From contig JALHDC010000002.1 of NCBI GenBank assembly GCA_022840695.1, positions 25,753 to 89,752 on the forward strand: a DNA stretch of 64,000 nucleotides, written 5' to 3'. The DNA is from a bacterium (GTDB taxonomy: Bacteria; Patescibacteriota; Dojkabacteria; SC72). Shown in pieces: positions 1-14,201 of this stretch (within the stretch, counting starts at the first letter, position 1; each line of letters begins with the position of its first letter). Below the pieces are notes generated by a model that was not told the DNA's origin, searched no databases, and saw nothing but the letters and a program-made list of their open reading frames with translations. The position numbers and the translations under genes are program-made.

Positions 1-173
1 CTGACTAAAAGGATACACATTACTTTCCCTCCATTTAACCATTCTCTTGTAGAATTCATAGAAAGATGAACTCTGTTTTTTCCCAAATATTACGTCGAAC
101 ATAGTTAAATATATACTAATGGTGGGAACTATGGAAGATATATTAACAGATTTTAATACACTATGGAAAACTC

Positions 174-202
174 TTGACCAAAATTTTTAATAATGTAACA
201 TA
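174..202 (+). promoter_or_regulatory. possible sigma70-like promoter (TTGACC, 16-17 nt, TAACAT) driving the glmS leader/ribozyme
   Basis: TTGACC at 174-179 with an AT-rich -10-like hexamer about 17 nt downstream; located about 25 nt upstream of the ribozyme. Confidence 0.25.
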
Positions 203-223
203 TACATAGGGTATTTAACATAA

Positions 224-330
224 TAGCGGCTGGGCAATGCTAAGGACATTGCAACGAGGCAGGAGCTATCGAGACATCAGCGGGCACTCCTAGGCTGTAT
301 TGTAAGCCTAAAGGTTAGTTACAAATCCAC
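224..330 (+). ncRNA. glmS ribozyme (GlcN6P-dependent self-cleaving leader) in the 5' UTR of glmS
   Basis: AGCGGC near the expected cleavage site, 6-bp P1-like hairpin GCAATG/CATTGC, AACGAGG (consensus GACGAGG) at 253-259, GGAGC-UAUCGA-...-GCGGGCA-CUCC matching the conserved P2/P2a core (UAUCGA...CGGCGGAUGCC) with a compensatory closing stem, P3-like stem TAGGCT/AGCCTA followed by AAAGG; GC-rich island in an AT-rich UTR immediately upstream of glmS; 3' boundary (P4) uncertain. Confidence 0.75.
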
Positions 331-378
331 AAACTCTAACCAACAATCCCTAATCAATTAAAATAATTAACTACTACC

Positions 379-2166
379 ATGTGCGGCATATTTGGCTACA
401 CCGGATCTAATGTTGCAAACAATTTAATTTTTGACGGATTAAAAAGATTAGAGTATAGAGGGTACGATTCCTGGGGAATAGCGATATTAAAAGAAAATAA
501 AATACACCAATACAAAAACATCGGCTTAGTGAAAAAAGATAAAGATTTAGAAAAACTACCAGATGCTAAAATAGGGATAGGACATACTAGATGGGCAACT
601 CATGGAGGTGTAAAGAAAGTAAATGCCCATCCTCACATTTCGACAGAGAAAGACTTCACAATTGTTCAAAACGGAATGGTTGAAAATTTCGATTCATTAA
701 AAAAGCAACTTCTAAAACAGAAAGCTATATTTAAATCAGAAACAGACACAGAGGTAATTGTTAAACTTGTAGAAAAAGAAGTAAGGAGTGGGAAGTCTCT
801 CAAACAATCGTTAATAACTTCATTTAAAAAATTAGAGGGAAGAAATACCATAGCAATACTTGATTCAAAACAGAATAAAATATATGCAATTAAAAATGGT
901 TCGCCATTAGTTGTAGGACTCTCTAAAGATGGTATATACCTAGCTTCTGATTCTCTCTCCTTCTCTCCATACACTAAAAAAATTGTAGTCCTTGATGACT
1001 ATGATATGGTTGAAATTGAAGGAAAAAATATAAGTATATTCAATATTAAAACGAATAGAAAGAAAAAACCTGAGATTAAAACTTTAAAATATCAGTACGA
1101 GGAGATAGACAAAGGTAAGTATGATCACTTCATGCTTAAAGAAATTGTAGAGCAACAAAAAACAATTAATTATGCCACTGAATATACCTTGGAGGAGCTA
1201 AAACCTCTCCTAGAGGCAATTAGGAGGTCAAAAAAAGCATATATATTAGGAGCTGGTACTGCAGGATTTGCAGCTGGTCAAATTGGATATTTTCTAAGAA
1301 CAATAGCAGGCATAGATGCACAGGATGTAAAGAGCTATGAATTTAGATCATATCTTCCAATCATAACTTCTAAAGATTTAATAATAGCTGTATCACAAAG
1401 TGGAGAAACTGCAGATACAATAGAGCCATTGGAGATTTTGAAAAAGAAAGGTTGTAAGATAGCAAGTTTTGTAAATATGTTTGGTACTACAATATCCAGA
1501 ATGTCAGATTATGAATACTATACTAATGCGGGACCTGAGATATGTGTTGCTTCCACAAAGGTATTTACAGCTCAAAGTGCATGGGGATATCTTTTAGCTA
1601 TGTCATTAGCAGGAAAACATACTACAGCCCATAGAAGATTAAAATTACTAACAAAATCACTTAATAGTCTATTCACACCAAGTAGTTTTGACTACCTTAA
1701 ACGTATGTGTGGGGTTTTAAAAAAGAGTGAGCATATGTTCATATTAGGTAAAGGAGAAAATTCTTTTATAGCCCTAGAGGGAGCTCTAAAGATCAAAGAG
1801 ATTTCATACAAGCATGTGGAAGGCTTCTTTGCAGGAGAATTAAAACATGGAGTAATAGCTCTCATAGAGAAAGGTACTCCTGTATTTGGAATTATACCCG
1901 ATGATCATAAAGATAATGAGAACAAAGACATTATCAGTGCAATAGAACAGGTAAAGGCTAGGGGAGCTTTAACCATAGGTATTGGGAGTGAGCAGTATTC
2001 AAAATTAAAAATATTTGACTATTTCATTCCTACACCTCAAATTAACTCATTAAGTAGTATAGCCAATGTTATACCTTTTCAATTGGTATCATACTTTCTT
2101 TCTTTGCAATTAGGTAATAACATAGATAAACCTAGGAATTTAGCAAAATCAGTCACTGTTAAATAG
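379..2166 (+). CDS. glmS: glutamine--fructose-6-phosphate aminotransferase (isomerising)
   Basis: N-terminal MCGIFGY catalytic Cys nucleophile, two SIS domains, 595 aa. Confidence 0.95.
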   Translation: MCGIFGYTGSNVANNLIFDGLKRLEYRGYDSWGIAILKENKIHQYKNIGLVKKDKDLEKLPDAKIGIGHTRWATHGGVKKVNAHPHISTEKDFTIVQNGMVENFDSLKKQLLKQKAIFKSETDTEVIVKLVEKEVRSGKSLKQSLITSFKKLEGRNTIAILDSKQNKIYAIKNGSPLVVGLSKDGIYLASDSLSFSPYTKKIVVLDDYDMVEIEGKNISIFNIKTNRKKKPEIKTLKYQYEEIDKGKYDHFMLKEIVEQQKTINYATEYTLEELKPLLEAIRRSKKAYILGAGTAGFAAGQIGYFLRTIAGIDAQDVKSYEFRSYLPIITSKDLIIAVSQSGETADTIEPLEILKKKGCKIASFVNMFGTTISRMSDYEYYTNAGPEICVASTKVFTAQSAWGYLLAMSLAGKHTTAHRRLKLLTKSLNSLFTPSSFDYLKRMCGVLKKSEHMFILGKGENSFIALEGALKIKEISYKHVEGFFAGELKHGVIALIEKGTPVFGIIPDDHKDNENKDIISAIEQVKARGALTIGIGSEQYSKLKIFDYFIPTPQINSLSSIANVIPFQLVSYFLSLQLGNNIDKPRNLAKSVTVK

Positions 2167-2190
2167 ACTTAATATGGGTTACAATTAAAT

Positions 2191-2748
2191 ATGGATTCAA
2201 GTAGGAATAAAACTGTAGTGTTGTTTCTGTTAATGGGAGCTACTGTAATATTCTCAATACTGTATGTATTTGTAATACTGCCTAATAATAAAAGTACATT
2301 GGGAAGCTCTGATATACTTCTAGAACTACCAGTACAGAAATGGAATATTAGGTATTCGGAGTATGGAATACTACCATTTTGTAAAGATGATAATACATCA
2401 TTAACATTTGAAGTAGGACCAGATACTACAGTATTTTCATCAGTATCAGGTATTGTAAGCTCTGTTAAGGACAACATCATAACAGTTGAGGTGTCTCCTG
2501 GTATCTATGTAGAGCACTTTCCAGTATCTAATTACAATGTTTTTGAGAATGACTATATAACAAAGGGACAATCAATCGGAAAAGTAGATGGGGAGTATTT
2601 GAATTTAAGAATTAATGTACAAAAGAATGAGTTATATGAATGTCCATATAATTTTTTAAATACATTTGGAAAGAGTATCGTAGATGAGGTATTAGAATTA
2701 GTAGAATATGAGGGTAATGCTTGTGAATGTGCTATTTTAAATTATTAA
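2191..2748 (+). CDS. membrane-anchored hypothetical protein
   Basis: 185-aa ORF with N-terminal TM helix; no recognisable catalytic motif. Confidence 0.4.
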   Translation: MDSSRNKTVVLFLLMGATVIFSILYVFVILPNNKSTLGSSDILLELPVQKWNIRYSEYGILPFCKDDNTSLTFEVGPDTTVFSSVSGIVSSVKDNIITVEVSPGIYVEHFPVSNYNVFENDYITKGQSIGKVDGEYLNLRINVQKNELYECPYNFLNTFGKSIVDEVLELVEYEGNACECAILNY

Positions 2749-2759
2749 TATATAGATAT

Positions 2760-3041
2760 ATGCCTGAGTATGTATACAGTATTATATTGGTATTAGCTAT
2801 TGTAGGTATTATGGTTTGGTGGGTAGCTAAGAAGAGAGGAGAGGAATGGAAGGGAGAAGTAATTAAGAAGAGGTATTCTCCTGGGGATTATGAGAATTCA
2901 CCTAGTTATACTGTAGTGTTTAAGACAGATGAGGGTAAAAAGAAAAGATTTACTACAGCAGATAGTAAATATTATGATTCATGGAATGAGGGAGATAGGG
3001 CAGAGAAGAAGAAAGGAGAGTTTTTTCCAAGTAAGGTGTAG
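2760..3041 (+). CDS. small membrane-anchored hypothetical protein
   Basis: ORF; likely start at internal ATG 2760 (MPEYVY...), one TM then K/E-rich domain. Confidence 0.3.
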   Translation: MPEYVYSIILVLAIVGIMVWWVAKKRGEEWKGEVIKKRYSPGDYENSPSYTVVFKTDEGKKKRFTTADSKYYDSWNEGDRAEKKKGEFFPSKV

Positions 3042-3046
3042 TAATT

Positions 3047-3379
3047 ATGGAATTTGAAACACTTAGAAACAAGCAGGTGTATTTAATAGATAGGGATAAT
3101 AGTCCTTCTAAGTATAAAGAAGATTCTAAAAAGATAGAAGAAGAGATAAGGAAGGAGATATGGAATGGGGAATATAGTAAACCTATCTATTATTATGGTA
3201 TATCAGATGTTTTACCTGAATTAGATAAATTTACAAATGGAGATAGATCTAAGGTTTGTGTTTCTGATAATTGTGTATTTCCTGATAAATATAATAATAC
3301 ATTAGTTTATGTAGCAGAGGATAAGGTTATACATTGGTTTGTTTCTCCTAAGGATGTAGGATTGGAAAGAGGGGATTAG
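3047..3379 (+). CDS. hypothetical protein
   Basis: 110-aa ORF, co-directional, 5-nt spacing from upstream ORF. Confidence 0.35.
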   Translation: MEFETLRNKQVYLIDRDNSPSKYKEDSKKIEEEIRKEIWNGEYSKPIYYYGISDVLPELDKFTNGDRSKVCVSDNCVFPDKYNNTLVYVAEDKVIHWFVSPKDVGLERGD

Positions 3380-3406
3380 TAGGGTATAATTACATTGTTT
3401 TATTAT

Positions 3407-3484
3407 GGTGGATGTAGCTCAACTGGTTAGAGCATCGGTTTGTGGAACCGAGGGTTGTGGGTTCAAATCCCATCTTCCACCCCA
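3407..3484 (+). tRNA. tRNA-His (anticodon GTG) with encoded G-1 and 3' CCA
   Basis: cloverleaf folded by eye: extra G-1 pairing with discriminator C73 (His-specific), acceptor GTGGATG/CTTCCAC, anticodon stem TCGGT/ACCGA, loop TTGTGGA, T-arm GTGGG-TTCAAAT-CCCAT, CCA at 3482-3484. Confidence 0.9.
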
Positions 3485-3485
3485 T
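3472..3485. repeat. attL-like direct repeat (3' end of tRNA-His), ATCTTCCACCCCAT
   Basis: identical 14-mer recurs at 14365-14378; flanking similarity TCAAATC / TGAAATC. Confidence 0.7.
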
Positions 3486-3574
3486 GTAGAGAAACAATCT
3501 CTTTGTATTGGCAGCCTTTATTGATACTAAATCCAAGCTTGAGGTATGGTTCAAGTAGTTCGATAACTTTGTTT

Positions 3575-3793
3575 TTATTTCGTTGTAATCCCCTCATCGT
3601 TATCCTCCTTATATGATCCTGTATCGTCTTCAAATTGATATGGTTGATCATCTTCTGGATATTCAGTTTCCATTGCATTATCATCTTCTAGAAGGTCTGT
3701 AAGAGCCTCTAGAGACTGTTCATCCCCTTCATCGAATGTAGAAGTTTCTTCTGTATCTATTTCATCTTGTGTTGTCTGATCATCGTCATCCAT
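3575..3793 (-). CDS. very acidic small protein (about 45% Asp/Glu), last gene of the RM operon
   Basis: 72-aa ORF, 15 nt downstream of hsdS on the same strand; composition DDDD...EDD; no homology recognisable. Confidence 0.35.
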   Translation of the reverse strand: MDDDDQTTQDEIDTEETSTFDEGDEQSLEALTDLLEDDNAMETEYPEDDQPYQFEDDTGSYKEDNDEGITTK

Positions 3794-3807
3794 ATTTGAT
3801 TATATCG

Positions 3808-5025
3808 CTATATTAGCTTACCTTCAAAGGCTTTTTTAAGGATTGATTGACGGAGTGACTTTATAAAAGCTTTTTGCTCTTGAATCCTACGAATTGATTC
3901 GTCAGAGTATGTCTTTAACTTCTCAAGCTTCTTGGAAATCGCTTTTTGACGGCTTATGTCTTGAGGATAAATAAATGGCAGATTCTCTGTTTTTGATTTA
4001 TTTAATATTGGCAGTGTTGTACTAGAACTCTCAGTAGTGATTAATGAGCGTATTTTTCTGAGATAGAAATAAAGATATTTCATATCGAACTTTGGATTAG
4101 GAATAAAAGAATTGATTTGTTGGTTTGTTGTAAGCTCTACTTCTGCAATCCCGACTTTTCCAATCGTTGCACCTATGCAACATAAGAGTACTGTATCTTC
4201 AGGTAATAGTCTTACAACCCCAGTTTCGATTGCATATTTATCAATATATTTATTAGCCTTTGTGATTACGATTTCTGAGTCAGGTAAATCGCTTGGTCCG
4301 ACAAAAGGTATGTCCTGATTTGTATAGTAAAGTTTCTCCTTTGTTTGGGGTGTTTTTCCCGTGTATACTTGGAAAATATCTCCTAGTGATTTAATTTCCC
4401 AGCGATCATCTTCCTCAGGTAAGGTATGAGGGATAAGCCTCTCTAATGCACTATCCATTACCTTGTTTAATTTATCTTCAGCTTGTTTAAGCTTTGCTTC
4501 TGATTTATCTAATAATGTAAAGCATTCTTTTATTTTTGATAAGATTTCAGACTGTGTTTCTAAATCGGGCAAATTTATAGGAATTTCTCTTATGACTTTC
4601 ATCGGTTTTAAATTCTGCATTGCCGTGCCTGAAGTTTGTAGAAGATATCTCTTTTGGACATATTCTGATTCTAAGTAAAGCTTTAAAAACTCTGAGTACA
4701 CTTTTTCACTTGGTCGGATTCTTAGTAATGCTTGGTTTATAATGCCACTTTTTACACCTTTAGGAGCAATTGATAACTTTCCGATGGTTCCTGAACAACT
4801 CATGATTATGTCATTTGGTATTACTTCGAATGCCTTCATCTCTTGAAACTTCTCGCTATTTATATAATAGGAACCAAGTCTGAAATCATCGTAAATAGCA
4901 TTTTTTTGCTCATACACTTTATAACCATCTGGTACGAAAATGCTCTTCTTTAATGCTCCACCAAAAGGGCCTCTCTTTAGGTCTGCTACTTCATTTAGCT
5001 TGATTGTTTTAAAATTCTTTTTCAT
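3808..5025 (-). CDS. hsdS: type I restriction-modification specificity subunit
   Basis: 405 aa, two-TRD architecture with central and C-terminal conserved coiled-coil spacers, located after hsdM/hsdR. Confidence 0.8.
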   Translation of the reverse strand: MKKNFKTIKLNEVADLKRGPFGGALKKSIFVPDGYKVYEQKNAIYDDFRLGSYYINSEKFQEMKAFEVIPNDIIMSCSGTIGKLSIAPKGVKSGIINQALLRIRPSEKVYSEFLKLYLESEYVQKRYLLQTSGTAMQNLKPMKVIREIPINLPDLETQSEILSKIKECFTLLDKSEAKLKQAEDKLNKVMDSALERLIPHTLPEEDDRWEIKSLGDIFQVYTGKTPQTKEKLYYTNQDIPFVGPSDLPDSEIVITKANKYIDKYAIETGVVRLLPEDTVLLCCIGATIGKVGIAEVELTTNQQINSFIPNPKFDMKYLYFYLRKIRSLITTESSSTTLPILNKSKTENLPFIYPQDISRQKAISKKLEKLKTYSDESIRRIQEQKAFIKSLRQSILKKAFEGKLI

Positions 5026-5034
5026 TGCTATTTA

Positions 5035-5802
5035 TTAAAATGGTAATTCGTTTTCATTACTCACTGATTGAGGCTCTTCAATATTAAACTTTTTGTTGTA
5101 GTAGCTAATTAAAAATATTCCCACCGTAGCAACAGAATTAATGATAAATGAAGCATACAGAGGATTGTCTATAATTCTGTCTTCGGTTAATTTACCATGT
5201 GATCTAGTCTTTTCACTTCGGAGTTGTTCTATTGCTCTTGAAACAGCTAATAAGCTACTGCCTATTGTTTTCACCTCAGTAGGCATTTCTTTTTCTGGAT
5301 ATAATTGAAATTGTTTAAGAATATCAATAGCCTGTTCGTATAAAGTCTTTGTCTTATCAAAGTTTTCAAATTTACTATCCTTTAATATATGTTTTACGAT
5401 GCTTTCTAGTGCAGAATTAGCTAGTGAAATTGCATTATCTGGATGTTCGTAACATTGATTCAGTGCCTGTTTGAATGTTTCTCCAGCTGTTTGGTAGTTT
5501 ACCTTGAAAATATTATATATTTCAGATACCGCAGGTATAAAGTCTGGTGTATTAACTCCTATGTCTGCTGCGATTTGTAAAACGGTCTCATCGTCAATAT
5601 GTGTTAATGTCTGTGTCAAATCTATCTCGTTTGTATCTCCTTTGGTAATTATTACAAAATTCTGATTATTCCAATCATACTCTTCTATCCATTGCTCCAT
5701 GTATTGTCGTACACGCTTATACGTTTTGTATTCGTTCCATATAGCATTTTCAATCTCGAGTAATAACTGCATTTTGAATTTTGGAGAGATCTTATCTATC
5801 AT
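5035..5802 (-). CDS. hypothetical protein inserted between hsdM and hsdS; candidate HEPN/Abi-like defence protein
   Basis: 255 aa, start overlaps hsdM stop by 4 nt; C-terminal R-x6-H (RSEKTRSH) motif compatible with HEPN Rx4-6H; assignment tentative. Confidence 0.5.
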   Translation of the reverse strand: MIDKISPKFKMQLLLEIENAIWNEYKTYKRVRQYMEQWIEEYDWNNQNFVIITKGDTNEIDLTQTLTHIDDETVLQIAADIGVNTPDFIPAVSEIYNIFKVNYQTAGETFKQALNQCYEHPDNAISLANSALESIVKHILKDSKFENFDKTKTLYEQAIDILKQFQLYPEKEMPTEVKTIGSSLLAVSRAIEQLRSEKTRSHGKLTEDRIIDNPLYASFIINSVATVGIFLISYYNKKFNIEEPQSVSNENELPF

Positions 5803-7166
5803 AATTCTTTCTGTAATTTTTCCAAGTTATCTAATACCTCTTTAATATCCTTTATACTCTCTTGTATAAGTACTTCCGGTTCTGGAAGATCATCTAAGTT
5901 TCCTAAGCTCTTATCTTTTATCCAAGTGATATCTAAGTTGAAGTTTCTTTTTTGTATATCTTCATATGTAAATTTCTTCCATCTTTCTGTCTCTTCATTT
6001 CTATTCTGGTGTGCATCTTCAAATTCTTTGAAATAGTTTTTTGTTAATCCTTTTGTTTTGGTGATCTTTTCTACATTAGTTCTCATATCGTAGATCCATA
6101 CTTCTTCTGTTCTCTTACCTGTTTTTTCAAAGAAAAGAACGTTTGTTTTCACTCCTGCAGCATATGGTGTAAATACTCCATCTGGAAGTCTTAGGATAGT
6201 ATGTAGGTTGTTATTCTCTAATAATATCTTTCTAATCTTTTGACCATCGTTATCTTCAAAAAGTACATTGTCGGGCATAACCATTGCACATCTTCCTCCG
6301 ATCTTTAGAATACTCATACAGTGTTGTAGGAAGTTTAACTGCTTGTTACTTGTCTGTACTGTAAAGTCGTCTCTGGTGTATTTAGAGCCTCCAGATTTCG
6401 TTCCAAATGGAGGATTGGTTACTATTACGTCGTATGATCCATATCGTTCTTCTAGAGCGTCTCCAAAGCGTATATTGGCCTCTATATCGTGTAGGTAGAG
6501 GTTCATTATGCATAGTCTTCTTGTATCCCAAACAATCTCACCTCCTGATATTGCTTTCTTTTGTAGAAACTCTTGTTCTTCAATACTTAATGCTTTGTTT
6601 TCTTTTTCTAATTTACTAAATATGTGCTCAAATGCTCCAATTAAGAAGCCTCCTGTACCACAAGCAGGATCGTGTATTGTTTCGTTATGTTTTGGATCTA
6701 CACATTTAACTATTGATTTAATTAATTCTCTTGGTGTGAAGTATTGTCCTGCTCCTTTTTGATCAGCTGCAAATTTAGCTAGAAGGCCTTCATATGCTGT
6801 TCCTTTTACATCTATATCAAGTGTCCCCCAGTCGTTTTCGTTTATTAGAAGTATCAGCTTTGAGAGGTTTACTGGATTTCTGAATTTGTTGTTAGATTGG
6901 GAAAATATATCTCCTAATACGTCTTCTTGTTTCCCAAGTTCTCTAAGCATTTCAGAATAGTGTTCTAGAAGATCTGTACCACTATGTTCTAGCAGTGTAT
7001 TCCATTTATATTTTTCTGGTACATATGCTCCTCTTTCATCTGCCATTTTCAAAAAGAGTAGGTATGTCAACTGTTCAATGTAGTCTCCATAGTGCATACC
7101 GTCTGCTTTGAGTACGTTACAGTATCCCCAAAGTTTATTTACTATGTCTGATTCTTGTTGTGTCAT
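5799..7166 (-). CDS. hsdM: type I RM DNA methyltransferase subunit (N6-adenine)
   Basis: NPPFG catalytic motif (VIVTNPPFGTK), AdoMet-binding region, HsdM N-terminal domain. Confidence 0.9.
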   Translation of the reverse strand: MTQQESDIVNKLWGYCNVLKADGMHYGDYIEQLTYLLFLKMADERGAYVPEKYKWNTLLEHSGTDLLEHYSEMLRELGKQEDVLGDIFSQSNNKFRNPVNLSKLILLINENDWGTLDIDVKGTAYEGLLAKFAADQKGAGQYFTPRELIKSIVKCVDPKHNETIHDPACGTGGFLIGAFEHIFSKLEKENKALSIEEQEFLQKKAISGGEIVWDTRRLCIMNLYLHDIEANIRFGDALEERYGSYDVIVTNPPFGTKSGGSKYTRDDFTVQTSNKQLNFLQHCMSILKIGGRCAMVMPDNVLFEDNDGQKIRKILLENNNLHTILRLPDGVFTPYAAGVKTNVLFFEKTGKRTEEVWIYDMRTNVEKITKTKGLTKNYFKEFEDAHQNRNEETERWKKFTYEDIQKRNFNLDITWIKDKSLGNLDDLPEPEVLIQESIKDIKEVLDNLEKLQKEL

Positions 7167-7167
7167 A

Positions 7168-8718
7168 TTATTCTTGTCCTAAAATTATCTTTTCTAACTC
7201 TTGATAAACCTTCATTTCTGGAGTAATTACTTCTGCCAATTTTTGTTTGTATGTCTTTAGGTCAATACTTTTCAAAGTAGGTGTAACAGTGTTTCTAAAT
7301 GTTATACTTAGATCCTTCAGCTCGTCATTGATTATATCTTTAACCAACTTATCATATTCTTCCTTACTCGCGTTATTATCAAGCTTTGAAACCACCTCCC
7401 AGTCATACAAATAGTTCTCAAGCTCTCTTCGTTTGAGCATTCTTCTTTTGGTCGGATTCACTTTAAGCCATTCATCTCTATTCTCATTGTCTCGATCTTT
7501 TAAAACAAAAATTTTTAGTGAATCAAATGCTTTTGCTAATACCTTTAATGCTATCTCAGAATATCCGTCTGGTTCTGTATTTCCTCCGCTTGATACAAAT
7601 AATATCTCTGGCTTCGTTATCTCAAATATCTTGTTATAACAAATAGCGTCTATTCCTCGTTCATCGTCTGTATCATTGCGACCTTCGCAATAGTAAATCT
7701 GCTCAGGAGCTAGGAGGCCAGTTAAGTCCTCCAATGTTATCTTGAACAACTTTTTCCAATTTGCTGGTGTCGTCTTCATAGGGGTTAGTATTTGTTCAAC
7801 ATCGAAATCCTTATCAAAATCTAGCACAATGCTTTTGTCTTTTAGTTCCTTTTGTAGTGCTTGTAAAAAGCCTATGCTATGTGTTGCTATCCACAACTGG
7901 CAATTGTTAGGTACAAGTTTTTCGATCTCTATTAATAAGTTTCTTTGTATAGAAGGATTTATGTGTAGCTCAGGTTCGTCAATGCAAAAGATTGTATCGT
8001 TATAAGCATCTTTTTTGATAATCAAGTCAAGAACAATGTCTAAAACTTCTTTTTCTCCCGAGGAGAGATCTTCATAAGGTATATTTCGTGCTGATCCTTT
8101 ATGAAAGAATAATTGTCCTCTTTTTTCTATGACATTTCCTAAATCTGCCACTGATATATCTCCAAGAATATTTCTTAGTGATTGGTTAATTTGTCCAAGT
8201 AAATCGTTCATAATTTCTTGCCCAGTTTTTGTTCTTGTTACAAATACATCTTTCCAAGCTTTTCCTTGAAGTCTTTCATAGTTCTCTGTTAATCTGGAAT
8301 CTATCTGAGTCATACTTCCTGGTCTGTTTGTATCATTTAACAAGTCTTGCTCTTGTGCTCGTATCTGAGTGATATTTAGAGAAGGAGTATAACGATATGG
8401 AGTCCTAATGTAAAAACTCTTATTATTCAAGGCTGCTGAGTCCTCTCTTTCCACGTTAATGTTGGAATTTCTCGAGTATGAAGCTCCGCTCGGCTCTGAA
8501 CTTGTTACATATAAAGATTTAGACAGATATGTCACTTGAGGATTATAACTAGAGCCCTTATGATTCTTGTTTAACTCTTCAAAGGCGTCAAATACTGAAC
8601 TTTTCCCCGATCCATTGGGGCCAACAAGTGCTACTATTTTAGGTGAGTATCCATCTAAATCAATCTCAAGATTAGTGAAGCGTTTAAAATCTTTCAGAAT
8701 GACCTTCTTAATTCTCAT
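7168..8718 (-). CDS. ABC/SMC-like ATPase fused to C-terminal Toprim-like domain (OLD-family / PARIS AriA-AriB-like or Gabija GajA-like defence nuclease)
   Basis: Walker A GPNGSGKSS, signature-like LSSGEKEVL, Walker B FCIDEPELH, H-loop ATHS; C-terminal YYCEGRNDTD ... VLKDRDNEN resembling Toprim E/DxD motifs; embedded between hsdR and hsdM with overlapping ends. Confidence 0.6.
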   Translation of the reverse strand: MRIKKVILKDFKRFTNLEIDLDGYSPKIVALVGPNGSGKSSVFDAFEELNKNHKGSSYNPQVTYLSKSLYVTSSEPSGASYSRNSNINVEREDSAALNNKSFYIRTPYRYTPSLNITQIRAQEQDLLNDTNRPGSMTQIDSRLTENYERLQGKAWKDVFVTRTKTGQEIMNDLLGQINQSLRNILGDISVADLGNVIEKRGQLFFHKGSARNIPYEDLSSGEKEVLDIVLDLIIKKDAYNDTIFCIDEPELHINPSIQRNLLIEIEKLVPNNCQLWIATHSIGFLQALQKELKDKSIVLDFDKDFDVEQILTPMKTTPANWKKLFKITLEDLTGLLAPEQIYYCEGRNDTDDERGIDAICYNKIFEITKPEILFVSSGGNTEPDGYSEIALKVLAKAFDSLKIFVLKDRDNENRDEWLKVNPTKRRMLKRRELENYLYDWEVVSKLDNNASKEEYDKLVKDIINDELKDLSITFRNTVTPTLKSIDLKTYKQKLAEVITPEMKVYQELEKIILGQE

Positions 8719-11428
8719 TTGGATACCCTCCTTGTAATACTCGCTGATTTACATCTGCAATAACATACTGTAATTCTCCATTAAAATCGGTATTAGCTTT
8801 GTTATACCCACCTTTTCTTTTGAAGGTAAGGAGGTTGTTGAAGTCTTCTTTTTCTACAACAACATTCCTAGTGAGATGATTCTTTACAAGGTTTAACCAT
8901 TGCAATTGTTGTTGAGTGTATTCATCTAATTTCATAGTACTGAAAGCATTATCTACTCTTTCTTGTGGAGATATCAACTCACCACCATATACAGCATATG
9001 ACACAAAAGAGTAGAGGTCTGCATCTGTTTCTTCTTCTATGATCTGTTCTGCGGCTTCTTGTAATCTTCTTTCTGTAAACATTTCAGGAGTATTCTTCAA
9101 TTGCTCTTTTAGTTCGTTAAAAGCTTTTCTAGTGAAGTCTTTTGGATTCTCTAGAAGTATCCTTAATGCTTGTATAGTATGCTTGTTATCGTTTATGTAT
9201 GTTTTAAACGATTCCATGTAGTCTTCAGGTTTTAGATCTCTTCCATCTGTAGTTTTGAAAAGGTACTCAGAAGTTACAATCTTTGCTTGCCTCTCTCTGG
9301 AAACGATTAACCCATCTCTATATCTTGGGTATCTTTTAACAAATGTTATCCAGTTTGCATCTCCCCATCTTTCTAATTCCTGTTCGTTCTTGCTTGATAA
9401 TCTGTCTTGTACTGAGTCTGCAAGTTTTAGTAATCCATCTTTTTCAATTCCGAACCTATCTTCAAGTTCTTGTCTTCCCTCTTCTGTAATGTTTTTATCC
9501 ATTCGTCTTAGCTTGTTTGCTAGAATCTTCGCGTTCTTATCAATATTCGTTTCATTTTCTAATTCTTCTACCACCTCCTCTATGGATTTGGTGTTTGAAG
9601 GGGCTGTAGGCTCCATTACGCCTCCTTCTTTCTGCATAAACTCTATTACCCCCACTGCGTCAAATACTGTGAAATGGGTCTTTCCTATTTCGTTACAAAG
9701 TCTTGTTCCCCTTCCTATAATCTGCTCATAAAGTATTCTTGATCTAATAGGGCGAATTAGTACTAAGTTTTCAACTTGGGGAATATCAACACCAGTTGAA
9801 AGCATATCTACTGAAACAACAATACTTGGCTTCTTTTCGTTTCTAAAATGTCTTATCCAACTATTCGCTTTATCGATTCTGTATGTGATCTTTTGAATCT
9901 CATCTGGATATTTTATCTCTTCTTGTAATAGTTTTACTAATTGATCTGCGTGATCTTCGTTTACTGCGTAGAATATGGTCTTAGGTATTCTTTCGCCCTC
10001 TTTTTTAATGTAGGAGAGCACTTCTTGTACAATTTTTCTGTTTCTATCTTCAACTGTAACTTTTCTTTCTAATGAAGCCGTTTGAATGTTCAATTCATCT
10101 TCTAGGAAGGTACTAAATCTGTATGTACCACCTCTGTCTCTAACTTCTACCGCTTCTCCCTTTTGAAGTTCAATCTCTTTTGCCATATCTATGTCAGTTT
10201 GTATCCTTACAGCGTCAAAGTCTACTAAGTATCCTTCGTGTACTGCTTTTTCGTATGGGTAGTAGTAGATGTCTTTTTCGGTATGACAATCAAAATATGC
10301 TGCAGTATGAGCGGCTGGTGTTGCCGTTAATCCAATTTGATAACTATCGAAATAGTCGAGAACGTATTTCCACTTGTTGTAAATTGATCGATGGCATTCA
10401 TCTGAAATGATTAAGTCGAAGCTATCAATTGGGAAATCTGGATTATATTTGATTTCTGAATCCCCTAACTCTTCCCAGTTCTCATCTTCAATGTCTGTAT
10501 AACTTACTTTTTTTCCTGTTAATGTTGCATATAGTCCCTGTATCGTTGACACATAGACAAATGAGTTTACATTCTGTCGATTCTTCAAATTCTTGAGTTG
10601 TAATTGTTCTGCTCCTAGATCTTTTGGATCTTCGTCTCCTTTAAACAATCTATCAAAATATACTGGATATACAGTGTTAAATTTCTGGCCTGTTACTGGC
10701 TCAAACGTTGAGAATGCTGAGATTGCCTGAGAAGCAAGTGATCTTCTATCAACTAGAAACAGGATTCTTTTGAAATATCCTGTTCTCATTAAGTGATAGA
10801 TCAATGCTGAAGCCATAAAGGTTTTGCCTGTACCTGTTGCCATAGCTACGAGTCCTTTTCTTTTGCCTTCAAGTATTCGTTTAACTGCATACTCGACTGC
10901 TTCCTTTTGGTATTTTCTTAATCCCTTTTGTCCGTACTTCTCTATAACTTGTTCTGTTTCAAGTTCTCTTAGTGCCTCGTTTTTTGAATCTGAGAGCAAT
11001 TCGTTTAATGCTTCTGGTGTATGAAATCCTTTTACTCGTCTTGGTATCGAATTATTGATATGCAATTCTTGGAATGTTATTTCATTTCCGTCTGTACTGT
11101 ATATGAATGGTACTTTGTATTCTCCGTAGAGCTTTGGAAGGTCGATATCTTGGGCGTATCTCTTAGCTTGTGCAATGACTCCTTCTGTTGAGGTGTTATC
11201 CTTCTTGGCTTCTACAATCGCAATTGCTTTGCCATTAAAAGTTAATAAGTAGTCAGCTGGTCCTGAGACTGTTCCAAATTCTACTATTGCGTCTTTACTG
11301 CTATTAGTGAGGTCTTCTTTTGTTCGAGTGACTTTCCATCCAGCGTCTTTTAGAAGTTTATCAATACTATCTTTTCTAGTATTCTTTTCACTTTTGTAAG
11401 TCTTCGTAAATCTGAATGGTAGTTCCAT
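8708..11428 (-). CDS. hsdR: type I restriction enzyme R subunit (endonuclease/helicase)
   Basis: N-terminal PD-(D/E)xK nuclease (IVEAKKD), SF2 helicase motifs MATGTGKT and DECHR, 906 aa. Confidence 0.9.
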   Translation of the reverse strand: MELPFRFTKTYKSEKNTRKDSIDKLLKDAGWKVTRTKEDLTNSSKDAIVEFGTVSGPADYLLTFNGKAIAIVEAKKDNTSTEGVIAQAKRYAQDIDLPKLYGEYKVPFIYSTDGNEITFQELHINNSIPRRVKGFHTPEALNELLSDSKNEALRELETEQVIEKYGQKGLRKYQKEAVEYAVKRILEGKRKGLVAMATGTGKTFMASALIYHLMRTGYFKRILFLVDRRSLASQAISAFSTFEPVTGQKFNTVYPVYFDRLFKGDEDPKDLGAEQLQLKNLKNRQNVNSFVYVSTIQGLYATLTGKKVSYTDIEDENWEELGDSEIKYNPDFPIDSFDLIISDECHRSIYNKWKYVLDYFDSYQIGLTATPAAHTAAYFDCHTEKDIYYYPYEKAVHEGYLVDFDAVRIQTDIDMAKEIELQKGEAVEVRDRGGTYRFSTFLEDELNIQTASLERKVTVEDRNRKIVQEVLSYIKKEGERIPKTIFYAVNEDHADQLVKLLQEEIKYPDEIQKITYRIDKANSWIRHFRNEKKPSIVVSVDMLSTGVDIPQVENLVLIRPIRSRILYEQIIGRGTRLCNEIGKTHFTVFDAVGVIEFMQKEGGVMEPTAPSNTKSIEEVVEELENETNIDKNAKILANKLRRMDKNITEEGRQELEDRFGIEKDGLLKLADSVQDRLSSKNEQELERWGDANWITFVKRYPRYRDGLIVSRERQAKIVTSEYLFKTTDGRDLKPEDYMESFKTYINDNKHTIQALRILLENPKDFTRKAFNELKEQLKNTPEMFTERRLQEAAEQIIEEETDADLYSFVSYAVYGGELISPQERVDNAFSTMKLDEYTQQQLQWLNLVKNHLTRNVVVEKEDFNNLLTFKRKGGYNKANTDFNGELQYVIADVNQRVLQGGYPNEN

Positions 11429-11449
11429 AATGTCTTATTATATCGCAGA

Positions 11450-13747
11450 TTATTGTGTCTGAATAGCCATTTCTGATAGCTTTTGCTCTATTCTGTTCCA
11501 GTCTAAAATTAAATCTAAACTCTGATTCCACCAGTCACTAAATGGCAATTGTGAATCAGTCTTTTTTATTTCACTATATTGTCCAACTCGAAGTGTATCA
11601 GTCGATGGAATATTGTATGTACCTGATTCAGTAATCAACCATCTGTCGTGCAAGGAATTCTTTAATTCTGAATCTAAAATGACACGCATTTCTGCGTTTA
11701 TACCTCTGTAGTTGAGCTCTTCTTTTAAGGTTTTGAACTTTTCTCGAATCTTATGGTCTACTTTATTTATCGAAGTTATAATTTTTACAGAGGAGATTTT
11801 TGAATCTGAGCTTTCTGATATGCTTTCGGATATTAAATCCAAGCCTACGACTGAAAAGTATTTGTCTACCCATTTGATTTCGCCATATTGAGCTTTGATT
11901 ATATCCTTGAGATGTTTTGTATTCGTGTATGGACTTTGTGGTGTTATTAGGATCGTTTCCTTTTGAGCTCCTTCAAAAATGCTTCTTAATTCATTAATGA
12001 TTGTCTTCTTTCTCTCTTGAATGAAGTCATTAAAGTCTTCAGATCCGAAATTTTCTCTCGTCAGTATTTCAATAGCCTTTCTAGAAAGAAGATGTGTTTG
12101 CATTAGATCGTAGAATTGCTCGTCATTTCCGATATTTCTCTTTATCTCGTTGAGGTAATCGCTTGGAAGTCTGTCGCTAATCTTCTTGTTTGTATCATTT
12201 GAAATAGGAGCTTTGTTTAATATCGTATTTATGTCTTTTATTCCGTTTTTCTTACCCCAAGATGCTGGAACAATGTGGTGATCTTCTAATACTGAATACT
12301 CTGGTAGATTGTTTGTATAGAAATCTCTTGCTTCGTTTCTAGCAAACAAACTGAATATTGCATTATATATAGCAGTATTCTGCCTATTCTCTCTAACCAA
12401 ATCTAGATTCTCAATAGTATTAACGGCTCTTTGAACCACATTTGGTGTTATTGAATCGTCTTCTATCCATTTTTTGAGGTCTAAGTAGTCTTTTGTCATT
12501 GTTGATTCAACACTGCTCGAATAACTGTTGGATAGTACAGAAGCCCAATACCATTGTGTAATCTTCTTATCAAAAGCTTGCTGTTTTGTTGAATCGAGTG
12601 ACTCTTTTTCTTTCAGTAGAACAGCGAGAATTGGGGTCATAGTTGGATATGGAATAAACTTTGGTTGAAGTGATCCAAAATCCCTAGGATTCTCGATTTT
12701 TGCTAAAGCCTTTTGAGTATATTGTAAGGCCTCACCCCAGTATTGTGTGAATTCTTCCGGGCTTGTCATAATAACACGTTTCTCTTTTGAACCATCTTCT
12801 TTTCTAATTGTTCTTTGCGTATTAGGCACCAAGTAGTAAAGGTATCTAGGTGAGCAATATCCTTGTAGTCTGATCGACATATACTGAAGAAGGTATATGT
12901 TCATCTTTTCTAATTCCTTGTGGTTATAATTTTCAGAAGCAATTCTCCAGTTTTTCTTAAGCTCAATAGCGTGAGGCTTCAATAACGCGTTGAGAAGATC
13001 GAAGATCGTAAGTTTCAACCCAGATGAGTTGATTTTTGTAAATATATCGCACACCTTTGCGACATCGATGTCCTTTGAAAGCTCTATGTAGCTAATATCG
13101 TAACTATTAAGTAATGATTGGAAGAACTTCTCTAGCTTCTGAACTTTCTCTTCTTTTTCGGTATACCCTTGTTTCTCTAACCAATTTCCATACTGTACAA
13201 CCCACTTATACCATTCAAAGCCTTGACCAAGAAGATAAAGTGGGAATAGTCCTTCTTCGAATTGCTTTTCTAATGGTCCTACAAATTCTTCAGCAGTTCT
13301 TTGTCTTGAAGTATTGTCATTTCTGTACTCAATTGATTCGTCCCAATCGTCTTCTAAAATACTGTTTAGTTTAACAAAGAAATAGAAACGAGTTTTTCTT
13401 TTTGGAAATGGCTCTGTAGGTGGGAAAAATGCATAATGTAGAGCACTAAGTCTCTGTTGTCCGTCTAAAACAATGTGTTGGGCTGTATATTTTAGTTTCT
13501 CTTTATTGATCTTGTTAAATCCGTATATAGACTCACAATTCAGTTTATCGAAGTTTTCTGGGGTTGATCTCCAGAGAAGTAGTGTACCAATGTAATAATC
13601 TGCGAATATTGATTGCAACAATGCTTGTATATCCCAAGGTCCCCATTCAAATTCTCTTTGAAAGTCTGGAATTACATAGAATCCAGAATCTATTGCAGTT
13701 AGTATTTTGCTAAGATTGTCTTTTGACGGAGTCTCTAGGTCTCGCAT
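11450..13747 (-). CDS. DUF262 (ParB-like NTPase) / DUF1524 (His-Me finger) protein, GmrSD/BrxU-like type IV restriction enzyme, with extra C-terminal domain
   Basis: N-terminal FQREFEW and DGQQR motifs; EDHHIVP...N His-Me finger motif; 765 aa with about 200-aa uncharacterised C-terminal extension; first gene of the operon. Confidence 0.75.
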   Translation of the reverse strand: MRDLETPSKDNLSKILTAIDSGFYVIPDFQREFEWGPWDIQALLQSIFADYYIGTLLLWRSTPENFDKLNCESIYGFNKINKEKLKYTAQHIVLDGQQRLSALHYAFFPPTEPFPKRKTRFYFFVKLNSILEDDWDESIEYRNDNTSRQRTAEEFVGPLEKQFEEGLFPLYLLGQGFEWYKWVVQYGNWLEKQGYTEKEEKVQKLEKFFQSLLNSYDISYIELSKDIDVAKVCDIFTKINSSGLKLTIFDLLNALLKPHAIELKKNWRIASENYNHKELEKMNIYLLQYMSIRLQGYCSPRYLYYLVPNTQRTIRKEDGSKEKRVIMTSPEEFTQYWGEALQYTQKALAKIENPRDFGSLQPKFIPYPTMTPILAVLLKEKESLDSTKQQAFDKKITQWYWASVLSNSYSSSVESTMTKDYLDLKKWIEDDSITPNVVQRAVNTIENLDLVRENRQNTAIYNAIFSLFARNEARDFYTNNLPEYSVLEDHHIVPASWGKKNGIKDINTILNKAPISNDTNKKISDRLPSDYLNEIKRNIGNDEQFYDLMQTHLLSRKAIEILTRENFGSEDFNDFIQERKKTIINELRSIFEGAQKETILITPQSPYTNTKHLKDIIKAQYGEIKWVDKYFSVVGLDLISESISESSDSKISSVKIITSINKVDHKIREKFKTLKEELNYRGINAEMRVILDSELKNSLHDRWLITESGTYNIPSTDTLRVGQYSEIKKTDSQLPFSDWWNQSLDLILDWNRIEQKLSEMAIQTQ

Positions 13748-13886
13748 TGTAATTCCTCGCTAAAATTACTTTTATAAGGATATCAGAAAAGGCTGTATTT
13801 GAACAGAAATACAACTGTGTATTCATCGTACTAGCACTCTCTCTCAGAGTTTGCTAAAATAATTAATAACTTTTCAATTTAGCTTT

Positions 13887-14201
13887 ATGTCTAAAACACA
13901 ATCACACATAAGAGCCCAGTCTAAGGCTGCAGGTAAAGAGGGAAAACAGGAAGTCTCCTTATCTCGAAATAGACGACTAGATGCGGTTACAAAGTCTGGG
14001 TCTCGAGCAACAGAGATTGAAAGAAGTGGAAATCCAAAACTTCTTGAGAAAGCGGCTCAGAGATTAGGAGATAGACGTTCAAGTCAGAAGGTCTTGCAAG
14101 TTCCTCAGTCAGATATGGGATTAGCTACTGCCGCAATGCGAAAAAAGGAAGTCCACGGAACAGTTAAAAATATGTCAGGCACAAAGAGGAGATCTGTATA
14201 A
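13887..14201 (+). CDS. doubtful ORF (basic 104-aa product) within a GC-rich anomalous block; may instead be noncoding
   Basis: uses codons rare for this genome (CGA, GCG, ACG, GGC); local GC far above window average. Confidence 0.15.
   Translation: MSKTQSHIRAQSKAAGKEGKQEVSLSRNRRLDAVTKSGSRATEIERSGNPKLLEKAAQRLGDRRSSQKVLQVPQSDMGLATAAMRKKEVHGTVKNMSGTKRRSV

Follow-up and report, generated by a model that had tools for sequence, protein, structure and literature searches.

A predicted Abi_C HEPN ribonuclease with an SSB-tip-like C-terminal tail, encoded between hsdM and hsdS in a type I restriction-modification operon of a Dojkabacteria genome

The window analyzed here, a 64-kb stretch (64,000 nucleotides) of a Dojkabacteria contig, carries on its minus strand a tightly packed operon in which a GmrSD-like gene, hsdR, an ATPase gene, hsdM, a gene that we call X, and hsdS follow one another (Table 1). 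The genes upstream of hsdM overlap or are separated by gaps of at most 21 nt. The start codon of X (ATG, positions 5800-5802) overlaps the stop codon of hsdM as ATGA, and the ATG of hsdS lies 9 nt past the stop codon of X; judging from the DNA sequence, the translation of X is most likely coupled to that of hsdM, and X is most likely co-transcribed within the type I restriction-modification (R-M) operon. Independent gene calls identical to X are present on two public contigs that encode exactly the same protein, one of which belongs to GCA_022839185.1. The open reading frame, the Pfam matches of its neighbors, and these gene calls all agree with the initial annotation, which had placed a 255-aa protein between hsdM and hsdS. 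The G+C content over positions 1..14000 of the window was 31-37%.

Table 1. Positions in the window of the genes of the operon and of the predicted parts of the product of gene X
Feature	Positions	Strand	Basis or properties
GmrSD_N protein, first operon gene	11450..13747	-	DUF262; 765 aa
hsdR, type I restriction subunit, EcoEI-like C-terminus	8708..11428	-	ResIII, EcoEI_R_C, HSDR_N, Helicase_C (Pfam)
ABC-type ATPase between hsdR and hsdM	7168..8718	-	AAA_21, AAA_15 (Pfam); AriAB E = 4.7e-34 (PADLOC)
hsdM, type I methyltransferase	5799..7166	-	N6_Mtase E = 1.3e-73 and HsdM_N (Pfam)
Gene X, 255-aa Abi_C/AbiJ-type HEPN protein	5035..5802	-	29.6 kDa, pI 4.9
X, N-terminal domain, ~residues 1-88, alpha and small beta	5539..5802	-	conserved motifs
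X, HEPN domain, ~residues 90-238	5089..5535	-	model helices 90-102, 104-116, 121-140, 154-164, 175-197, 214-238
X, Pfam Abi_C (PF14355) stretch, residues 162-232	5107..5319	-	E = 2.2e-9, profile positions 8-82 of 83
X, predicted catalytic motif R195-S-E-K-T-R-S-H202 (R-polar-x5-H), then G203	5197..5220	-	conservation in relatives
X, N222, invariant polar residue in hydrophobic last helix	5137..5139	-	70/70 conserved
X, C-terminal tail, residues 239-255: variable disordered linker and tip NELPF-COOH	5038..5088	-	model pLDDT, column entropy
hsdS, specificity subunit, two target-recognition domains	3808..5025	-	Methylase_S E = 1.1e-36, two stretches (Pfam)

An ABC/Rad50-type ATPase of 516 aa, with a Walker A motif, GPNGSGKS, at 8599..8622, is encoded between hsdR and hsdM. 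Its C-terminal ~200 aa matched no Pfam family and contain the TOPRIM-like motifs YYCEG (7681..7695) and LKDRD (7489..7503); residues 145-470 matched the PADLOC model of the fused AriAB protein of PARIS. These features raise the possibility that the protein is a PARIS/OLD-like ATPase-nuclease guarding the restriction system. The ATPase is a separate defense module and is not conserved beside X in relatives. We also considered a "split PrrC", in which a separate ABC ATPase gene and an HEPN gene would share one R-M operon, and rejected it: the ATPase is absent beside X in three relatives (L023, L030, and L037), all with the order hsdM-X-hsdS. The GmrSD_N protein carries a DGQQR motif (13451..13465), a His-Me/HNH-like EDHHIVP motif (12266..12286), and an extra ~230-aa C-terminal region with no family match; it matched HEC-05 in PADLOC and is probably, from these sequence features, a modification-dependent (type IV) nuclease added to the type I system. 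Directly downstream of hsdS lies a 72-aa open reading frame (3575..3793, minus strand), which is also a gene call on a public contig. It contains 30 Asp/Glu and only 2 Lys/Arg residues (pI 4.05), a composition like that of DNA-mimic proteins, and a 94% conserved counterpart follows hsdS in a Saccharibacteria relative (L004, 2337-2552). In a compact example of layered defense, one operon joins a type IV-like enzyme of the GmrSD kind to a type I R-M system, an ABC-ATPase module, and a predicted HEPN RNase.

A Pfam scan matched X to Abi_C (PF14355), a family of the HEPN superfamily, at 37.7 bits against a gathering cut-off of 24, and X is a member of this family with the HEPN fold. The AbiJ model of PADLOC (PDLC02347) matched residues 123-237 (E = 1.4e-7), the aligned part covering only positions 168-279 of the 281 in the model, that is, its HEPN half. 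In the structural model, X is predicted to form the all-alpha, up-down helical bundle of the HEPN fold. The initial annotation had suggested an HEPN/abortive-infection module and had stated that no longer alignment was recognizable. The Abi_C match above the gathering score shows the latter statement to be wrong; the HEPN reading is supported by this same match, the AbiJ match, the conservation of R195 and H202, and the recurrent position in R-M operons. More than 600 full-length relatives of ~255 aa were found at the 90% cluster level, with PF14355 on all of those among the matches listed; the few named homologues carry the name "abortive infection family protein". The identity of X to characterized relatives is confined to the HEPN half. 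No NCBIfam model matched X, a phmmer search of PDB sequences gave chance matches alone (E > 0.2), and a PHROGs search returned nothing except one unannotated family. No relative was found in a phage collection, and a plasmid collection yielded only distant matches to the HEPN half (25-28% identity), annotated "abortive infection family protein". Neither an antitoxin nor another inhibitor of X was evident.

The R-x6-H motif noted near the C-terminus in the initial annotation is present as RSEKTRSH (residues 195-202), the sole Rx4-6H motif of X. It lies at the end of the model helix 175-197 and in the loop that follows, ahead of the last core helix. Because 24.6% of 20,000 shuffles of X contained some Rx4-6H motif (9.0% contained Rx6H), RSEKTRSH alone is weak evidence; what gives it weight is its conservation, together with the profile and fold matches. 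Conservation was assessed in a set of 70 sequences, consisting of the window protein and 69 cluster representatives at 22-51% identity, drawn from an exhaustive profile search with 673 matches in all. R195 and N222 were conserved in 70 of the 70 sequences and H202 in 68, the other two having Gln, so that R and H hold among homologues down to 22% identity. S196 was kept in 56/70, T199 in 58/70, and G203 and E133 in 65/70 each, and R195, S196, T199, H202, and G203 were invariant in 55 relatives at 48-83% identity. The near-invariance of the Arg, His, and Asn residues indicates a preserved active site, and we infer a role for N222 in that site or in the dimer interface.

The N-terminal domain is marked by two conserved motifs, ISPKY...W...Y and IDL..TL..ID.ETLLKIA.DLGV.TPDFIP. 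It matched no Pfam family at E <= 10, including AbiJ_NTD3, AbiJ_NTD4, and AbiJ_NTD5; its profile found nothing among PDB sequences, and Foldseek found nothing in the PDB (best E = 1.9). A profile search for other architectures returned only Abi_C proteins and fragments, so the domain is no promiscuous module. By sequence it appears to be family-specific, as compared with AbiJ_NTD3/4/5 in Pfam; AbiJ-NTD2, described as a mostly helical domain of ~100 aa with one strand and exemplified by a Bacteroides protein (PMC3710099), remains a candidate by description.

The C-terminal tail combines a variable linker with a conserved tip. In the linker, the model pLDDT is below 50 at residues 244-253 and the column entropy is 2.6-3.6 bits, which is near-random; at the last five positions, the column entropy is 1.4, 0.9, 1.0, 0.1, and 0 bits. 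The family consensus of the tip is D-D-L-P-F-COOH, or [D/E][D/E]-[L/I]-P-F-COOH with its main alternatives, and the window copy reads N-E-L-P-F, with one acidic residue. The final Phe was found in 55 of the 55 sequences of alignment A1 and the Pro in 53; a hydrophobic-Pro-Phe end closes 156 of the 188 full-length family members and is present at 72 of 78 genome loci. Among the neighboring open reading frames, this end occurred in only 4 of 578, one of which was a split copy of X, and in the 64-kb window, counting open reading frames of 60 aa or more in all frames, X alone has it. The variants IPF, MPF, and VPF occur in the X family: IPF was seen in a gammaproteobacterial copy (L023), a Sulfurimonas copy (L017), and one Patescibacteria copy (L030), and LPF in nearly all Bacteroidota copies. 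The tip-bearing tail is present alike at loci embedded in R-M operons and at stand-alone loci, and for this reason we rejected the idea that the tail docks X onto the R-M complex.

The genomic context of X relatives was surveyed in 80 loci from species-representative genomes, mostly of Bacteroidota; locus counts refer to 78 loci. According to Pfam, the 74 upstream neighbors included Methylase_S (20), Eco57I (9), N6_Mtase (8), MmeI_Mtase (4), and Type_ISP_C (2), and the 69 downstream neighbors included Methylase_S (5) and HsdR-type families (3-4); these family counts may overlap on one protein. A local iterative HMM search found an R-M gene within four genes of X in at least 34 of the 78 loci, a lower bound since this search is less sensitive than Pfam. 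Within the family, hsdM-hsdS-X-hsdR is the arrangement seen most often, and the order in the window, hsdM-X-hsdS, recurs at five loci (L003, L004, L023, L030, and L037). Stand-alone members have flanking genes on the opposite strand (e.g., L047, L054, and L079) or lie among housekeeping genes, such as those for enolase, a tRNA synthetase, and EF-P (L083), and R-M genes are missing from the vicinity of many close relatives that show 45-56% identity and share the three-part architecture. The initial annotation had considered the hsdM-hsdS gap a recurrent position for such genes. Our survey bears out a recurrent position in R-M operons, with HsdS encoded upstream in 20 of 74 cases and further neighbors matching methyltransferase or type IIG/ISP models; it corrects the picture in that X more often follows hsdS than it separates hsdM from hsdS, and in that many members have no R-M neighbor. 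In one Dysgonomonas locus (L084), two different Abi_C genes are arranged in tandem (7231-8004 and 8001-8765, plus strand) with a 4-nt overlap, adjoining integrases and a methyltransferase. The first encodes an AbiJ-like protein (LRNNSSDAHG) that lacks the tip and differs in its N-terminal half; the second encodes an X-family member with a DDLPF end. The two share 31% identity in the HEPN part only. The two nearest relatives of X (93% and 87% identity) come from Candidatus Dojkabacteria and Saccharibacteria metagenome-assembled genomes and the bulk of the family is found in Bacteroidota, which suggests that a Patescibacteria lineage acquired the cassette horizontally.

On the strength of these sequence features and of analogy with characterized relatives, X is probably an HEPN endoribonuclease of the AbiJ/SadR kind and, as a single protein, an effector of abortive infection; its gene is most likely co-transcribed with, and translationally coupled to, a type I R-M system. 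By analogy with SadR and HEPN toxins, X would dimerize through its HEPN domain, the two R-x6-H motifs would form one RNase site, and the enzyme would be latent in uninfected cells. Once an infection was sensed, X would cleave single-stranded cellular and phage RNA; translation would stop and the infection would be aborted, with X as a second layer of defense after DNA restriction. Sensing or regulation probably falls to the N-terminal domain and the C-terminal tail. AbiJ/Abi_C HEPN RNases in restriction operons were already catalogued in 2013, and an Abi_C defense RNase was reported in 2026, so that the gene as initially flagged adds little to what is known.

The restriction enzyme could instead hold X in check. 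X lies between hsdM and hsdS, its translation appears to be coupled, roughly half of the related loci are in R-M operons, and Anantharaman et al. proposed PrrC as an analogy for R-M-linked HEPN genes (PMC3710099); X might therefore be inactive while bound to the HsdM/HsdS/HsdR complex and be released when a phage anti-restriction factor disables the complex. We consider such a strict, PrrC-like dependence unlikely because many relatives, including close ones at 45-56% identity, have no R-M gene nearby, because the R-M partners are of several types (type I, MmeI-like, and type ISP), which argues against one specific protein-protein contact, and because X lacks the ABC-ATPase domain of PrrC; moreover, SadR and lactococcal AbiJ work as single genes. 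Since many members have no R-M neighbor, the restriction enzyme is probably a co-inherited partner of X and not an obligatory regulator. X might also be a catalytically silent HEPN protein and not a defense toxin: as an RNA- or nucleotide-binding protein it could regulate the restriction operon, or it could have a housekeeping role in RNA processing. Some HEPN families are indeed non-catalytic (table in PMC3710099); however, the almost invariant Arg, His, and Asn residues of the X family, its defense-island contexts (R-M, DarT, AAA_21/DUF4276, and integrases), and its patchy distribution across phyla, which fits a mobile defense gene, make this very improbable. A hydrophobic C-terminal segment had also been reported initially, and it exists: the maximum of the Kyte-Doolittle score in 19-residue windows falls on residues 215-233 (mean 1.84), a value that could point to a transmembrane anchor and hence to a membrane-bound effector. 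The segment lies, however, inside the model helix 214-238 of the HEPN bundle (pLDDT 78-86) and inside the Abi_C match, which extends to residue 232, and it holds the invariant polar N222. We have discarded the transmembrane reading on these grounds as having next to no likelihood; by sequence and model, the segment is taken to be the HEPN domain's final core helix rather than a membrane anchor.

The function of the tail is a separate matter. The C-terminal tip of SSB, the protein that binds single-stranded DNA, is DDDIPF in Gram-negative and DDDLPF in Gram-positive bacteria; it follows an intrinsically disordered linker and serves as the docking site for many genome-maintenance proteins (PMC5531588; PMC5143411). 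Like SSB, X ends in a disordered, poorly conserved linker, acidic residues, and then hydrophobic-Pro-Phe at the free C-terminus; unlike SSB, it has no OB fold and is no SSB, and the window copy has only one acidic residue (NELPF). In the literature library searched, no paper that connects the SSB C-terminus with HEPN or AbiJ proteins or with anti-phage defense turned up, and the SSB-tip-like tail seems to be undescribed. RecT/Red-beta-type phage annealing proteins recognize the last seven residues of host SSB (bioRxiv 10.1101/2020.04.14.041095), and escape mutants against SadR map to phage single-strand annealing proteins (SSAPs; PMC13590631); those against lactococcal AbiJ likewise lie in an SSAP gene (PMC13064643). 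Tentatively, from the sequence, the tail might copy the SSB tip, as a decoy or for docking, and so link a latent RNase to the network of tip-binding proteins, although we regard this as a doubtful possibility. Phage SSAPs or other SSB-tip binders would grab the tail and thereby switch the RNase on; alternatively, the tail would keep the enzyme docked to an OB fold or to the N-terminal domain of X itself until single-stranded DNA or phage proteins displaced it by competition. If true, this model would tie together the SadR and AbiJ escape mutants in SSAPs and the recognition of the SSB end by SSAPs, and would supply a defined molecular trigger for HEPN defense RNases of a class whose activation is as yet unexplained; the authors of the SadR study stated that how such RNases are silenced and triggered is unknown (PMC13590631). 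A conserved tip after a freely varying linker offers a handle on how single-protein RNases stay silent and become activated.

Conservation of the tip would also be expected if LPF were a degradation tag and no SSB mimic, in which case X would be an unstable toxin whose level was set by ClpXP and rose when infection perturbed proteolysis. In Streptococcus mutans, a C-terminal LPF taken from SsbA suffices for ClpXP-dependent degradation of GFP (PMC5143411). That recognition is, however, strain-dependent, absent in E. coli and other streptococci, and was not reproduced in vitro (PMC5143411); the acidic residues before LPF are conserved in the X family as in SSB, whereas ClpXP needed LPF only, and the IPF, MPF, and VPF variants also occur. 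A degradation tag therefore appears quite improbable to us.

Another SSB-like tip was encountered at a Galbibacter sp. locus (L038), where a 506-aa UvrD-like SF1 helicase ending in KYDDDLPF (1894-3414, plus strand) is encoded three genes upstream of the X homologue and is followed by a DarT single-stranded DNA ADP-ribosyltransferase and an ADP-ribosylglycohydrolase. Among the best 120 homologues of this helicase (63-85% identity), 85 have a hydrophobic-Pro-Phe end and 36 end in exactly DDDLPF. These ends mark a second, unrelated family with an SSB-like tip in defense neighborhoods of Bacteroidota, and the device may be used more widely.

X can be set beside several known systems. With PrrC of EcoprrI it shares the position of an HEPN-superfamily RNase gene among hsdM, hsdS, and hsdR, a second line behind restriction, here with hsdM, X, and hsdS adjacent and hsdR upstream. 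PrrC, however, is an N-terminal ABC ATPase fused to a nuclease, and its latency is maintained via the R-M complex, whereas X has neither the ATPase fusion of PrrC and RloC nor a conserved dependence on R-M; no ATPase family of Pfam matched X, and its ~88-aa N-terminal domain has no P-loop. X does not show the HEPN-MNT pairing either, its neighbors being hsdM and hsdS, and no nucleotidyltransferase was present among the 25 Pfam families listed each for the upstream and the downstream neighbors of related loci. In 2013, Anantharaman et al. described the AbiJ HEPN family and noted that it occurs in R-M operons (PMC3710099). AbiJ of Lactococcus lactis (Abi-859) resembles X in combining a variable N-terminal domain with a C-terminal HEPN domain, the domain that in X matches the PADLOC AbiJ model, and some solo members of the AbiJ family also sit in R-M operons (PMC3710099). 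It differs in that only the C-terminal 112 of the 281 model positions match X and the model ends at X residue 237, before the tail.

The closest characterized relative of X is SadR of Staphylococcus aureus, an Abi_C RNase that is 266 aa long and carries the motif RNEYGDAH (Kondo et al., Nat Commun 2026, PMC13590631). SadR degrades single-stranded as well as total RNA and leaves DNA and double-stranded RNA; the substitutions R225A, N226A, and H232A each abolish both its RNase activity and phage defense, and it migrates at ~66 kDa on a native gel, about twice the monomer mass, which suggests a dimer (PMC13590631). The two proteins differ in several respects. The polar residue after the Arg is Asn in SadR and Ser in X, the N-terminal halves are not detectably related, and SadR adjoins rlmH/SCCmec, whereas X lies in an R-M operon; SadR is an RNase by experiment and X a predicted one. 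Only 34 residues follow the catalytic His in SadR, which leaves no room for a linker and an SSB-like tip, compared with 53 in X (family median 53); together with the end point of the AbiJ model, this indicates that both SadR and AbiJ have no tail and that the tail is a subfamily-specific addition. The two are alike in size (266 vs. 255 aa), in consisting of one protein whose Abi_C/HEPN domain is C-terminal, and in sharing the R-polar-x5-H spacing. In SadR-like Abi_C proteins, the motif is R-polar-X-H, in which X stands for 3-5 residues, mostly 5 (PMC13590631), and the window protein follows this rule with R195, S196, the five residues EKTRS, and H202. SadR needs no partner gene, is a defense gene found on islands, and protects as a single gene against phage and plasmids (PMC13590631).
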